DNA from: Bifidobacteriaceae bacterium
GTDB taxonomy: Bacteria; Actinomycetota; Actinomycetes; Actinomycetales; WQXJ01
Assembly: GCA_031255835.1 (NCBI GenBank)
Contig: JAIRRT010000192.1
Span: forward strand, 1 to 40,716
DNA: 40,716 nucleotides
Reading direction: 5' to 3'
The notes below the pieces were generated by a model. That model saw only the letters and a program-made list of their open reading frames with translations. It was not told the origin of the DNA and searched no databases. Shown piece by piece: positions 14,228-40,716 of this stretch. Numbering within the stretch: the stretch's first letter is position 1; each line of letters opens with the position of its first letter. The translations under genes were made by a program, and so were the position numbers.

Positions 14228-15411
14228 ACCGCACCGATATTGCTGTGGTGGGGGCCGGCATCGTCGGCTTGGCAGTGGCGGAGGCTTTGTCCCGTCAAGG
14301 TCGCCATGTGACAGTACTGGAGAAGGAACCGACGATGGCGGCCCACCAGACTGGCCGCAATTCTGGGGTTATCCATTCGGGCATCTATTACGCCCCGGGC
14401 AGCTTGAAGGCGCGGTTGTGCCGGGCGGGGGCGGCGTCGATGGCGCGGTTCGCTGAGGAGCACGGTGTTGCTCGCGGACCGAGCGGCAAGGTGATTGTGG
14501 CGACGCGGCCGAGCGAACTGCCTGCTCTGAGGGCGCTGGCGGCCCGGGCCGGGGCCAACGGGATCGAGGCGCATCAGGTGACGCGCGCACAGGTGGCCGA
14601 ACTTGAGCCGCATGTTGGCGCCATCGCCGGCCTGCATTTGCCCGGCACGGGGACCATCGATTACTCCCAGGTTTGCCAGGCGTTGGGCGCGCTGGTGGTC
14701 AGCCAGGGCGGCGAGGTGCTGCTGGGGCAGCGGCTGGTGGCGGCGCGGACGGTGGGCGAGACGGTCGAGATCAGCCTGGCGGACGGCTCGCGGCTCGCGG
14801 CGAATGGCCTGATCAACTGCGGTGGGCTGCATTCGGATGAGATCTGCTCGGCCTGCGGCGTGGACCCAGGCGTCCGGATTGTGCCGTTCCGGGGCGAGTA
14901 CTACGAGCTGGCGCCTGACAGGCGGGACCTGGTGCGCAGCCTGGTCTATCCGGTGCCTGACCCGCGGTTCCCCTTCCTCGGGGTGCATCTGACGCGCATG
15001 GTTGACGGGTCGGTTCACGCCGGGCCGAATGCTGTGCTGGCGCTGGCGCGGGAGGGGTACACCTGGCGCGATATCCAGCTGGACGATCTAGCCGGCACGC
15101 TGACATGGCCCGGATTCTGGCGCCTGGCCGCGCGCTATGCACCCGCCGGCGCCAAGGAGATGGCCCGCTCCGCATCGATGCGCCTGTTCGCCGCGTCCCT
15201 GGTCCGCTTGGTGCCGGAGATCGAGCCCAGCGACCTCCGCCCAGCCCCCGCCGGAATCCGCGCCCAAGCCCTAACCGCCACCGGCGCCCTAGTAGACGAC
15301 TTCCTAATCCGCCGAGCCCCCCGCCAAATCCACGTCCTAAACGCCCCCTCCCCAGCAGCCACAGCCGCCCTAGAAATAGCCCACCACCTATCAACCCAAT
15401 CCCCCACCTAA
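14224..15411 (+). CDS. lhgO: FAD-dependent L-2-hydroxyglutarate oxidase/dehydrogenase (LhgO/YgaF family)
   Basis: The ORF is 395 aa. Its GTG start overlaps the GT4 stop (GTGA). It carries the FAD motif DIAVVGAGIVGLAVAEAL, then HQTGRNSGVIHSGIYYAPGSLKA, FRGEYYEL and FLGVHLTRMVDGSVHAGPNAV, which match the LhgO family as I recall it. The gene symbol is given at family level only. Confidence 0.75.
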   Translation: MNRTDIAVVGAGIVGLAVAEALSRQGRHVTVLEKEPTMAAHQTGRNSGVIHSGIYYAPGSLKARLCRAGAASMARFAEEHGVARGPSGKVIVATRPSELPALRALAARAGANGIEAHQVTRAQVAELEPHVGAIAGLHLPGTGTIDYSQVCQALGALVVSQGGEVLLGQRLVAARTVGETVEISLADGSRLAANGLINCGGLHSDEICSACGVDPGVRIVPFRGEYYELAPDRRDLVRSLVYPVPDPRFPFLGVHLTRMVDGSVHAGPNAVLALAREGYTWRDIQLDDLAGTLTWPGFWRLAARYAPAGAKEMARSASMRLFAASLVRLVPEIEPSDLRPAPAGIRAQALTATGALVDDFLIRRAPRQIHVLNAPSPAATAALEIAHHLSTQSPT

Positions 15412-15547
15412 CCCCACCACCCGCGCCGCTCGCGCCGGCAGCGCCGGCACCCGCCCCCAACGGGCCACCGCCGCAACTGCTCAAAACACCACCTCACCTC
15501 CGGTTTCCCGTCCCGTTGTGAGCACTTTCGGTTGTCGCTGTCACCCG

Positions 15548-15823
15548 TCCGCCGATGGCGTTCAGACGTTGGGGGTGTTCGCCCTGTAGCGCGTGCGTTG
15601 GGTAGGGGTTCGATGCCGCTGGCGGCATGCCTTTTGGAGCCGGTCACCGAATTCTTCTGGGGATGATGCGTGTGGTCCAGGGTTTCGTGATGTCGGTGGG
15701 TTTGGTGGTGGTCCGGTTCCCAGACGTCGCGTGGTTCGGATCCCGGACCTGGGTGCGGACAAGGAGGTGTGCGGGCGTGCCTCCTCCAACCTCACCATCC
15801 AGTGTGTGGACGGCCTGATCGGA
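15548..15823. repeat. Head module of a modular intergenic repeat element (left copy), homologous to 39766-40211
   Basis: Blocks of nucleotide identity are shared with the right-hand copy. The shared blocks are gccgatg.cg.tca.acgttggg, gtaggggttcgatgccgctggcggcatgcctttt, ggtcaccg, tctggggatgatgcgtgtggtc...ttcgtgatgtcggtgggtttggtggtggtccggttcccagacgtcg.gtggttcggatcc, and acctcacc immediately before the tandem array. Confidence 0.8.
15613..15635 (+). terminator. Possible intrinsic-terminator-like hairpin inside the head module
   Basis: The inverted repeat is ATGCCGC-tg-GCGGCAT (15613-15628), followed by gcc and TTTT (15632-15635). The sequence is identical in the right-hand copy (39828-39850). 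The stem is short and the U-tract is only 4 nt long, so this call is weak. Confidence 0.3.
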
Positions 15824-16130
15824 GGTGCTTAACTGACCAATTGAGCCGCCTGGCTCGCCAATTGGTCACTTAAGCACATCCACCTCGACGGGCCTGAGCA
15901 CAAGCGGGCAGGTGAACGGCCTGGTCGGAGGTGCTTAACTGACCAATTGAGCCGCCTGGCTCGCCAATTGGTCACTTAAGCACATCCACCCCGACGGGGC
16001 TGAGCACAAGCGGGCAGGCGAACGGCCCGGTGGGGAGTGCTTAACTGACCAATTGAGCCGCCTCCCACGCCAATTGGTCACTTAAGCACATCCACCTCGA
16101 TGGGGCTGAGCACGGCAGGGCACGCAGGAA
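15824..16130. repeat. Tandem array of 3 units of 106 bp, each containing an imperfect palindrome of about 53 nt (left locus)
   Basis: The landmark gcttaa recurs at 15827, 15933 and 16039, giving a period of exactly 106 bp. In unit 1 the left arm GTGCTTAACTGACCAATTG is at 15825-15843, the loop agccgcctggctcgc is at 15844-15858, and the right arm CAATTGGTCACTTAAGCAC is at 15859-15877. The third unit degenerates after about 16115. Confidence 0.9.
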
Positions 16131-16428
16131 GACTGAGCGAACTTGGGAACTGCTGGACCAGAGGCAGCATCCCCAGACAATCCAAGGTGACCATCTCTGT
16201 CGGTCTTGCCGCCAGGAGCACTGACCCACTACGCACCGACGGCGTTACCCAACGGAGCACCCAGGTTTGGACGGCATCGGCGACCGGAAGTGCTCAGCCC
16301 TGGGCTCGGGGTGGGGGGTTCTACTTGGGGGCGGGCGTGAGGTGGGGGGTTGTGGGGGGGAAGGGGGATAGGGTGGCTTGCGGGGCGGCTTTGGGTGCCG
16401 CTAGGGGACTAGGACAGGAGCACTCCAC

Positions 16429-17277
16429 ATGTCTATTGGGTTCATTGGCGCGGGCAACATGGCTGGCGCGATCATCCGCGGGATTGTCGGATCGGGGTAT
16501 GCGCCGGCTGCGCGGATATTGGCTTACGACCCTCATGCGCCGACTCTGGACGCGCTTGTTGAGCAGACCGGGATTGTGCCGGTGGCCGGGAATCCTGAGG
16601 TGATTGCGGCCGATACAACCGTTGTGCTGGCGGTAAAACCGCAGGTCATCCCGCGGGTCATGGAGGAGGTGGCTGCACAGATTGTTGCTGCCAGGCCCCT
16701 GGTCATCTCGATTGCCGCGGGCACGCCAATCCAGTCTCTGGAACGCTGGCTGGGCCCTGAGCAGCCAATTGTCCGCGCCATGCCGAACGTCAACGCCCAG
16801 GTGCGCCAAGCCGTCACAGCAGTGGCCGGAAACGGCGCCACCACGCCGGAGCAACTCGCCACGGCCAAGGCGATCTTCACCTCGGTTGGCGAGGTGGTCG
16901 AGTTGGATGAGTCGCTGTTCCGGGCGTTCGCGGCGTTGGCCGGCTCCTCCCCAGCCTGGACGTTCCTGTACATCGACGCACTCGCCCGCGGTGGCGTGGC
17001 AGCCGGGATGCCCAAAGCCCTGGCGCTGCAAATCGCCGCGAAAGCGGTTGCCGGCTCTGCTGCCCTCCTGGCCGATGGCGGCGCTCACCCTTGGGAGTTG
17101 ATCGACCAAGTGTCCTCCCCGGCGGGCACAACAATCGCTGGGTTGACCGTCCTGGAGGAGAAGGGCCTGTCAAGCGCTGTGCTTGGCGCCGTCGCCGCGA
17201 CCATGCGGCGTGAAGAGATGATCGCCCGGAAGAACCGCCCGCCCCGCCGCCCACGAAACCGCCCCGAGATCCCGTGA
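16429..17277 (+). CDS. proC: Pyrroline-5-carboxylate reductase
   Basis: The ORF is 282 aa, with AGGAG 9 nt upstream of the ATG. It has the NADP motif IGFIGAGNMAGAII, then VLAVKPQ, RAMPN and the C-terminal motif VSSPAGTTIAGL. A basic Pro/Arg tail is present. Confidence 0.9.
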   Translation: MSIGFIGAGNMAGAIIRGIVGSGYAPAARILAYDPHAPTLDALVEQTGIVPVAGNPEVIAADTTVVLAVKPQVIPRVMEEVAAQIVAARPLVISIAAGTPIQSLERWLGPEQPIVRAMPNVNAQVRQAVTAVAGNGATTPEQLATAKAIFTSVGEVVELDESLFRAFAALAGSSPAWTFLYIDALARGGVAAGMPKALALQIAAKAVAGSAALLADGGAHPWELIDQVSSPAGTTIAGLTVLEEKGLSSAVLGAVAATMRREEMIARKNRPPRRPRNRPEIP

Positions 17278-39652: not shown

Positions 39653-39756
39653 CTCACCCAGGGGCGCCCCCAGGCCCACCCGGCCCAGGGGGCGCCCCTG
39701 CAAAACTCACCACCCAAGGCGCCCCCCAGGCCACCCGGCCCAGGGGGCGCCCCCGC
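39653..39756. repeat. Direct repeat (2 copies, about 53 bp) built from GGGGCGCCCC palindromes, immediately after the GH3 stop
   Basis: The landmark ctcac recurs at 39653 and 39706. The sequence GGGGCGCCCC or a near-variant occurs four times (about 39661, 39689, 39718 and 39743). Confidence 0.8.
39660..39699 (+). terminator. Strong GC hairpin downstream of the GH3 gene (terminator-like, no U-tract)
   Basis: The left arm AGGGGCGCCCCCAGG (39660-39674) pairs with the right arm CCAGGGGGCGCCCCT (39685-39699) at 14 of 15 positions, with a 10-nt loop. It starts 8 nt after the stop codon. A second, similar hairpin lies in the next repeat copy. Confidence 0.45.
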
Positions 39757-39765
39757 ACCCCCACC

Positions 39766-40211
39766 CACGCCGATGACGCTCAACGTTGGGTGCTCGGGTT
39801 GTGGTGCGGAGGTTGCGTAGGGGTTCGATGCCGCTGGCGGCATGCCTTTTGAAGGCGGTCACCGGAGTATCTGGGGATGATGGGTGTGGTCAGGGGTTTC
39901 GTGGTGTCGGTGGGTTTGGTGGTGGCCGGGCTATGCGACGTTCTTGCGCACCTGCCGCCTAGGGTCACCGGTTGCCGCCATCGTCGCGGTGGTTGGTTCA
40001 GTGGTGTTGGCGGCAAGACTGATCGAGGTGGTCACCGATGTCTTCTGGGGATGATGCGTGTGGTCAGGGGGTTCGTGATGTCGGTGGGTTTGGTGGTGGT
40101 CCGGTTCCCAGACGTCGAGTGGTTCGGATCCGATACGTGGCCGCGGACAGGCAGGTGTGTCGAGTGTGTCTCCCCCCACCTCACCCCTCAGCCGTGGTTG
40201 GCCTGGTGAGG
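39766..40211. repeat. Head module of the modular intergenic repeat element (right copy), with an internal duplication of about 173 bp
   Basis: It shares the same conserved blocks as 15548-15823. The block ggtcaccg...tctggggatgatg.gtgtggtc...tcggtgggtttggtggtgg occurs twice, with GGTCACC at 39857 and 40030 (spacing 173 bp). An extra GGTCACC lies at 39963. The hairpin plus TTTT at 39828-39850 is identical to 15613-15635. Confidence 0.8.
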
Positions 40212-40716
40212 GGTGCTTAACTGACCAATTGAGCCGCCTTGGTCGCCAATTGGTCACTTAAGCACATCCACCTCGACCGGCCTGAGCACAAAAGGGTGTG
40301 TGGACGGCCCGGTCAGAGGTGCTTAACTGACCAATTGAGCCGCCTGGCTCGTCAATTGGTCACTTAAGCACATCCACCTCGACGGGCCTGAGCACGACAG
40401 GGTGTGTGGGTGGCCTGGTCAGGGGTGCTTAACTGACCAGTTGAGCCGCCTTGGTCGCCAATTGGTCACTTAAGCACATCCACCCCGACCGGCCTGAGCA
40501 CGACAGGGTGTGCGGATGGCCCGGTCAGAGGTGCTTAACTGACCAATTGAGCCGCCTGGCTCGCCAATTGGTCACTTAAGCACATCCACCCCGACGGGCC
40601 TGAGCACGACAGGGGGTGTGGACGGCCTGGTCGGAGGTGCTTAACTGACCAATTGAGCCGTCTGGCTCGCCAATTGGTCACTTAAGCACATCCACCCCGA
40701 CGGGGTTGAGCACGAC
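40212..40716. repeat. Tandem array of at least 4.8 units of 106 bp, each with the imperfect palindrome of about 53 nt (right locus). The array is truncated by the window end.
   Basis: The landmark gcttaa recurs at 40215, 40321, 40427, 40533 and 40639, giving a period of exactly 106 bp. The units are about 85-95 percent identical to each other and to the left-locus units by eye. The window ends inside unit 5. Confidence 0.9.

Follow-up and report, generated by a model that had tools for sequence, protein, structure and literature searches.

Two repeat loci in the window

The stretch analyzed here (the window) is the entire 40,716-bp contig JAIRRT010000192.1 of a Bifidobacteriaceae bacterium, and its end falls inside the right-hand one of two tandem arrays of 106-bp units. 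Each unit consists of a 53-nt AT-rich hairpin and a 52-nt GC-rich linker, and each array is preceded by a homologous head sequence. We interpret the array, with a probability of about 0.6, as the internal minisatellite of a new modular, non-coding family of intergenic foldback repeats that resembles MITEs (miniature transposable elements with inverted repeats) and BOX elements.

An element comprises, in order, one or two ~270-bp heads, tandem units of 106 bp and the head again in inverted orientation. The left copy (15519-16296) is a complete element of 778 bp, made of a head, three units, a 40-nt spacer and an inverted head end, and it is flanked by a DAO-family gene that stops at 15411 and by proC, which starts at 16429. 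The right-hand copy has two heads, T1 and T2, and is cut by the contig end. The features of the two loci are as follows (unit types A and B are described below).

15519..15680, + strand: left inverted repeat, the outer part of head T1, with the outer end TGAGCACTTTCGG; from alignment to the reverse complement of 16153-16296
15681..15810, + strand: inner left head, a GT-rich block and spacer, with a spurious short open reading frame (ORF) stopping at the TGA of the first hairpin arm
15811..16113, + strand: left array, three 106-bp units whose hairpins occupy 15825-15877, 15931-15983 and 16037-16089 and whose loops are all B-like or variant
16153..16296, - strand: right inverted repeat of the left element, which repeats the outer 145 nt of the head in inverted orientation and ends in ...CCGGAAGTGCTCA
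39767..39941, + strand: truncated head T1 of the right locus, lacking the outer end, 90% identical to 15597-15711 and beginning 115 bp after the stop of a GH3 gene
39942..40199, + strand: head T2 of the right locus, abutting the array, with the GT-rich block TCTGGGGATGATG...GGTTTGGTGGTGG, 94% identical to 15642-15743
40200..40716, + strand: right-hand 106-bp array, of order A-B-A-B-B, with 4 complete units and a fifth that the contig end truncates after 81 nt; from Tandem Repeats Finder (TRF) and the unit table
40213-40265, 40319-40371, 40425-40477, 40531-40583 and 40637-40689, + strand: five hairpin cores of the right-hand array, from the arm search and folding

The inverted ends of the left element are long. 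Positions 15519-15680 and the reverse complement of 16153-16296 are 76% identical over ~125 aligned nt, the match reaching across ~145-160 nt, and the local alignment scores z = 13-20 above dinucleotide shuffles. The outer motif TGAGCACTTYCGG marks two ends in the window and a third in L099, a metagenome contig described below. TRF assigned the left array to 15806-16113, with 2.9 copies and 93% matches.

The ORF in the head shows no protein-coding constraint. Its variable columns are spread over the codon positions as 17/12/10, its codon differences comprise 146 non-synonymous and 26 synonymous ones, and the frame differs between copies; a real small protein was rejected. A head hairpin, ATGCCGCTGGCGGCAT followed by TTTT, is weak as a terminator (z = 0.36) and is not claimed as one.

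Near-invariant hairpin arms

The hairpin core reads GTGCTTAA-C-TGACCAATTG, a loop or bulge of 15 nt, and CAATTGGTCA-C-TTAAGCAC, giving a 19-position stem of 18 bp and one C:C mismatch. An arm search of the window returned 16 arms, all 16 of them in the eight hairpins of the two arrays; the number expected by chance is 0. Among these eight units the 18 pairs are 100% paired and 17 are invariant, and variation lies mainly outside the arms (1 of 38 arm columns is variable vs 33 of 68 columns in loop and linker; Fisher p = 2e-7). When the hairpins of L099 are included, only two arm substitutions are found among 12 hairpins: A to G in the third right-hand unit, R3, giving a G.U pair, and C to G in one L099 hairpin. 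Both preserve or better the pairing, and the second repairs the C:C mismatch, which is thus not obligatory. The arms have a GC content of 42%, compared with 71-80% in linker and loop and 65% in the genome, contain the palindromes CTTAAG and CCAATTGG, and place stop codons in all six frames of every unit. Their near-invariance could result from selection on the hairpin, from sequence-specific recognition or from homogenization.

The heptamer TGAGCAC ends the left element on both sides (15519-15531 and 16284-16296) and recurs in every unit linker (e.g. 40282-40288), as ..GGCCTGAGCACGAC... This recurrence could represent a shared recognition motif or a trace of kinship between head and unit.

Unit order in the right-hand array

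TRF described the right-hand array (40200-40716) with a period of 106 bp, 4.9 copies, 91% matches and a score of 852. The predicted unit starts at 40212, 40318, 40424, 40530 and 40636 were confirmed, with 81 nt of the fifth unit present before the window ends. The window edge, past which the array was said to continue, is where the assembled contig itself stops, inside the repeat. The contig comes from a metagenome assembly, in which the order and number of units are themselves uncertain.

The original prediction described these units (R1 to R5) as alternating subtypes forming a 212-bp higher-order repeat that arose by dimer duplication. The features on which it was based are real: R1 and R3 (type A) have in common the loop TTGGTC and the linker variants cgaCCggcc and ggccCggtc, R2 and R4 (type B) have in common the loop TGGCTC and the linker variants cgaCGggcc and ggccTggtc, and R1 and R3 carry three shared derived features relative to R2 and R4. 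Four columns, two of them within one loop change, support this grouping, and the other two groupings have one column each. The alternation holds for units 1-4 but does not extend to R5, which is B-type at both of its visible sites (B loop, G), so that the order is A-B-A-B-B and comprises two periods only. Identity along the array is 0.928 at a lag of 212, barely above the 0.910 seen at 106 and also at 318, and TRF reported the 106-bp period alone for this array, with no 212-bp period. A-type units are found only as R1 and R3, and the left array and L099 contain neither such units nor the A/B alternation.

The part of the proposal that stays plausible is the duplication. There are 6 differences between R1 and R3 and 7 between R2 and R4, compared with 9-10 between neighbouring units; because alternate units are closer than neighbours, a single duplication of a two-unit block fits. 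From these unit comparisons, it is plausible that the A-B-A-B look reflects a local one-event duplication of such a block and not an established higher-order repeat. The array is like satellite higher-order repeats in that alternate units are nearer each other than neighbours, and is unlike them in that only two periods are present, broken by unit 5, and the pattern is missing from the other three arrays.

Linked substitutions in the linkers

Two linker substitutions, at columns 13 and 45, had been said always to co-occur and had been offered as possible evidence of a second conserved stem closing the linker. Co-occurrence is complete in the four complete right-hand linkers, but not elsewhere: over nine linkers from four arrays the combinations are G/T in 5, C/C in 2 and G/C in 2, the last in the second left-array linker (L2) and one L099 linker. 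Moreover, the two linked columns do not face each other in the proposed stem. The partner of column 13 is column 46, with C-G in 2 units and no pair in 4; that of column 45 is column 14, with G-C and G-U each seen three times. In this stem the G/T subtype has one mismatch and one wobble, i.e. two weakening changes without compensation.

Covariation was compared with 500 column shuffles, using the six complete window linkers for the linker-closing stem and the eight window units for a rival stem enclosing the hairpin. Neither stem covaries above the shuffles, of which 402/500 reached the observed score for the linker-closing stem and 461/500 for the hairpin-enclosing one. Both stems have ~8 bp with one bulge in every unit, and in the tandem layout the arm following hairpin n can pair with the one preceding either hairpin n or hairpin n+1, so the array itself cannot tell the two stems apart. 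A second stem revealed by covariation is thus unsupported.

Shared ancestry of alternate units, which the original prediction had offered as the other possible source of the linkage, is supported. The loop change is unconnected with the linker stem and yet travels with both linker changes, as expected if R1 and R3 are copies of one unit, and both C at column 13 and the A-type loop are restricted to R1 and R3. The aligned units support an explanation of the linked substitutions by shared ancestry and not by a conserved RNA stem. On seven other units (the left array and L099), a sample short of genome-wide, independent variation of the two sites and lack of alternation, which the prediction had itself named as evidence against it, are largely what we found.

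Copies outside the window

A profile search with the head ORF retrieved five short JGI 'hypothetical proteins' (P0121-P0125) of 43-57 amino acids, all ending in ...VLN*, an ending produced by the head running into GGTGCTTAACTGA. With no codon-position bias and a reading frame that changes from copy to copy, P0121-P0125 are non-coding repeat DNA annotated as protein. One of these ORFs is carried by L099, a 6,185-bp JGI metagenome contig with the same repeat family. On one side L099 has a head and a unit, and on the other, in reverse, 2.2 units followed by both head subtypes. Positions 13-394 of L099 align with window 39939-40321 at 87.5%, the reversed side aligns with window 39768-40433 at 87.9% identity over 669 nt, and the double-head order matches that of the right-hand window locus. 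The two sides are 94% complementary and meet in one hairpin, forming a large palindrome centred exactly on the hairpin loop, and the outer terminus of the element, TGAGCACTTCCGG, is the same as that of the left element in the window.

The central hairpin arm of L099 is interrupted by an IS1380-family insertion sequence (IS) at 1031-2720 (459-aa transposase, NF033539, 279 bits), which lies at TTAA with a TTAA duplication. Its ends, CCTCGATCTTTC and GAAATCTCGAGG, are unrelated to the ends of the repeat family. AT-rich hairpin arms may be preferred IS targets in a GC-rich genome. The array in the other arm is interrupted at 393-965 by a 573-bp miniature element with TGT...ACA ends, which has three 24-25-nt subterminal repeats (GTCTCA..TGTGGACA) at each end in the style of Tn7/Mu/Tn552-type ends; ~15 nt of unit sequence is repeated on both of its flanks with 2 differences.

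In L099 an S4-domain gene abuts the repeat element. The window comes from an uncultured high-GC actinobacterium whose closest proC relatives (at most 76% amino-acid identity) are metagenome-assembled genomes (MAGs) labelled Bifidobacteriaceae by NCBI. In relatives (L100 1954-2454) proC lies next to a divergently oriented S4-domain (Hsp15-like) gene, beyond which come SIR2 and an AI-2E transporter gene. The S4-to-proC gap measures only 84 bp in L100 and L101, without a repeat (these relatives are 70% identical), and no repeat is present in L093 and L095 either. In the window (15411-16429), proC is instead preceded by the DAO-family gene and the repeat. Recombination between repeat copies may have rearranged the proC region.

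A sister strain (L096, SRR14710884) is 99.75-99.8% identical over 2.7 kb. Its positions 2745-2787 diverge from window 15448-15490 directly after the GCCGGCAGCGCCGGC hairpin, a putative terminator of the DAO gene, ~70 bp before the element. These 43 nt match nothing in the window, and the intergenic region downstream of the DAO gene is polymorphic between strains. The short Logan contigs of a sister strain that exact-protein look-ups returned all end before the repeats.

Copies were read at two loci of the window and one of L099, and another three or four head-array junctions appear as short ORFs only; unrelated loci of the family number three or more and come from at least two samples, and the matching intergenic site is empty in relatives. 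An exact-arm scan and a head-peptide scan of a metagenome-contig collection gave 0 matches, although L099 holds a perfect arm match at 291-337; the collection omits the relevant samples, and the zero says nothing about rarity. The matches listed from a 16-mer scan of a genome collection (L001-L091) were single chance hits. Scans of viral contigs and blastn against phages and plasmids found no copies of the repeat, and two viral matches to the GT-rich 19-mer were discarded as glycine-rich coding sequence, matched by chance. Six-frame translations of the unit gave no match as protein queries, and no relevant description of a 106-bp repeat or of a bifidobacterial repeat family was found in the literature.

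Comparison with known repeat classes

Several known classes were rejected. A CRISPR array is contradicted by 52-nt 'spacers' that are 80-90% identical within and between loci, and no cas domains were found in the window. For integron attC sites, GCTTAAC in the left arm agrees with RYYYAAC whereas CTTAAGC in the right arm departs from GTTRRRY, the units are contiguous and without cassettes, and there is no integrase in the window. A ToxI-like repeat of a type III toxin-antitoxin system does not agree with the left array, which is followed by the inverted head and proC, or with the L099 arrays, which face each other; no PADLOC scan was made. A DnaA-box-like GTCCACA in the linkers occurs in two units only and was dismissed. 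The 24-kb interval between the arrays is not an island bounded by direct repeats, as proC, mshC, metH, a PAC2 gene and uppP (BacA) are syntenic with relatives.

Compared with MITEs, the element has terminal inverted repeats, though unusually long and degenerate ones, and it is small (778 bp) and devoid of a transposase, with no coding constraint in the head ORF and six-frame stops in the units. Its layout is that of BOX elements, with a head, then 3 units, at least 4.8 units or 1-2 units per arm, and then an inverted head.

Pneumococcal BOX elements have the structure boxA-(boxB)n-boxC with a variable number of boxB modules that fold independently (Croucher et al. 2011, PMC3049150). The element described here is similarly an intergenic composite in which end modules surround a variable tandem module, with MITE-like inverted ends and predicted stem-loops. 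It differs in its 106-bp unit with a 19-bp-stem hairpin of its own (vs the 45-nt boxB), in its ~270-bp heads and ~150-nt inverted ends (vs 50-60 nt in BOX), and in that the heads can double and the arrays can form a large palindrome. The analogy is one of design only, as the sequences were not compared and homology is implausible between a 65% GC actinobacterium and a low-GC streptococcus.

The BrickBuilt and PgRS/MITE464 elements of Porphyromonas gingivalis are MITEs in which leader and tail modules enclose a minisatellite (Klein et al. 2015, PMC4596501). They resemble the present family in their inverted ends, intergenic location, narrow host range, lack of an internal transposase and target duplications that are unclear or absent in many copies. 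Their repeats, however, are 23 or 41 nt without a large hairpin, and their 12-nt ends match IS5-family elements of the same genome, whereas the ends here are about ten times longer and no parent IS is known.

Two further kinds of repeat invite comparison. The REP, BIME and REPIN sequences of proteobacteria are extragenic palindromic hairpins in mosaic clusters downstream of genes, and are thought both to be mobilized in trans and to influence mRNA stability and termination. REPs are 20-40 nt long, GC-rich and of alternating orientation within a BIME, whereas the present hairpins measure 53 nt, are AT-rich and keep one orientation within an array, and no RAYT gene is in view. The foldback (FB) transposons known from Drosophila and other eukaryotes have long inverted arms of tandem short repeats, and some copies carry coding capacity. 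The arrangement in L099, heads-units > < units-heads, is like theirs, but FB transposons are eukaryotic and unrelated in sequence; to our knowledge, no bacterial counterpart of FB transposons has been established.

Origin of the array and alternative explanations

For the MITE/BOX-like family proposed here, both mobility and function are what we infer, and its history can be sketched in conditional terms. The family would have spread by transposition in trans or by recombination. Its internal hairpin minisatellite would expand, contract and occasionally invert by slippage, unequal recombination or template switching, with unit number changing by replication slippage or by unequal crossing-over between units. 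One such slippage or crossing-over event could have copied a two-unit block to give R1-R2 and R3-R4, hence the A-B-A-B look, and the linked linker substitutions would then be hitch-hiking markers of this duplication. Transcription from the flanking genes on the same strand would yield a very stable multi-hairpin structure, which could block read-through or exonucleases; we regard such an effect as a possible by-product.

Several observations weigh against this interpretation. No target-site duplication was seen: the left element is flanked as ..CCCGTTG / TGAGCAC ... GTGCTCA / GCCCTGG without a direct repeat, in the one complete copy. There is no transposase in the window and none with matching ends was found, the IS1380-family element of L099 having unrelated ends and being itself an insertion. 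The inverted ends, ~150 nt at 76% identity, far exceed typical MITE ends in length and are much less well matched. Just three loci are readable as DNA. The left element and the L099 element both adjoin genes that flank the proC region in relatives, so the distribution could partly reflect vertical inheritance and rearrangement instead of transposition. Finally, the near-invariance of the arms suggests more than a purely selfish, passively decaying repeat, which would not predict it.

An unlikely alternative, though the one that survives best, is that the array is a functional structured RNA, transcribed together with or after the + strand genes upstream of it and acting as terminators or insulators, as 3'-end stabilizers or as a small-RNA array, with the unit structure including a second stem under selection. 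Both window copies have the same orientation and lie downstream of + strand genes, and each hairpin folds at z about -6 to -7. Folding energies for the whole left element favour the + strand, at -398.9 kcal/mol (z = -12.2) compared with -359.6 kcal/mol (z = -8.9) for the - strand, and the pairing-conserving nature of both arm substitutions and the six-frame stop codons agree with a non-coding structure. However, single units are equally stable on either strand, with z near -7 for the hairpin core on both, and the G.U-type mismatches in the inverted ends (8 vs 5) are uninformative on strand. Half of the L099 units are reversed, so no single transcribed strand fits all copies. Neither outer stem covaries above shuffles, no promoter-like or U-tailed terminator-like sites were detected in or beside the arrays, and a search of the whole window against Rfam 15 gave no match at the gathering threshold, the only matches being to generic miRNA hairpins at 18-28 bits where the thresholds are 74-100 bits.

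It is distinctly unlikely that the arms are putative sequence-specific sites of a dedicated protein, such as a RAYT/HUH-type or other hairpin recombinase or an architectural protein as at BIMEs, with the arrays and palindromes as products of that machinery. Such sites would account for arms that stay near-invariant in 12 hairpins from three loci and two samples where loops, linkers and heads differ by 10-25%. The absence of compensatory changes likewise fits recognition of sequence over structure alone, and AT-rich palindromic arm motifs in a 65% GC genome, a palindrome centre lying exactly in a hairpin loop in L099 and the terminal heptamer TGAGCAC in every unit linker point in the same direction. 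Yet Pfam scans of the 40.7-kb window and L099 revealed housekeeping genes only and no candidate gene for a mobilizer or recognition protein, the C:C mismatch is dispensable, and recent common ancestry or gene conversion could also keep the arms identical.

More doubtful still is a broader version, in which putative recognition of the 53-nt hairpin by a protein or a processing machinery builds the arrays and the hairpin-centred palindromes. Its basis is the contrast between arms that are essentially the same at three loci in two samples and surroundings that have drifted by 10-25%. If true, the family would represent a novel type of bacterial foldback mobile element, or a processed RNA array, and not a passive MITE.

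That the alternating order, and possibly the unit count, is a short-read assembly artefact of a tandem repeat at a contig end is highly improbable: the contig does stop inside the array, independent Logan contigs of the sister strain break close to the repeats and a strain mixture does exist (the sister strain is 99.8% identical), but R1/R3 and R2/R4 differ at 6 and 7 positions and so are not one cycle traversed twice, the variable sites are at most ~26 nt apart and linkable by ordinary k-mers, unique sequence brackets the left array on both sides, and the independent L099 assembly has the same units in tandem.

Other features of the window

Between the GH3 stop and the repeat head of the right locus lie two near-identical GC-rich hairpins, GGCGCCCCC...GGGGGCGCC, 55 bp apart (39663-39757). 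Folded as DNA, the pair scores -41.9 kcal/mol (z = -7.3), and the hairpins are probably tail-less terminators belonging to the GH3 gene itself. From the end of the left element to the proC start (16297-16428), the sequence is very G-rich, with runs of 4-7 G on the + strand, and may be able to form G-quadruplexes. The first 4.8 kb of the window have a lower GC content (0.60 at 2-4 kb) and no recognisable domains. Within them, at 441-1332, an 82-nt segment occurs four times at a spacing of 267-276 nt, over ORFs 98-874, 875-1237 and 1274-1879, which have no Pfam match; these repeats could belong to an unknown protein made of tandem paralogous modules or to a repeat protein with a frameshift.

Significance

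We describe a new modular foldback repeat family, previously undescribed, in a few uncultured actinobacteria. The elements have practical consequences for sequence data: they break assemblies, with this contig ending in one and Logan contigs stopping nearby, they yield spurious 'hypothetical proteins' of 43-57 amino acids in public databases, and they attract IS insertions at TTAA sites. The repeat arrays could also serve as variable-number markers for strain tracking. Should our reading be right, a little-sampled lineage, that of the NCBI-labelled Bifidobacteriaceae MAGs, gains a modular repeat family, and the head, minisatellite and tail design of BOX and BrickBuilt elements would have an independent origin in high-GC bacteria, where it comes with unusually long inverted arms and palindromes centred on hairpins.

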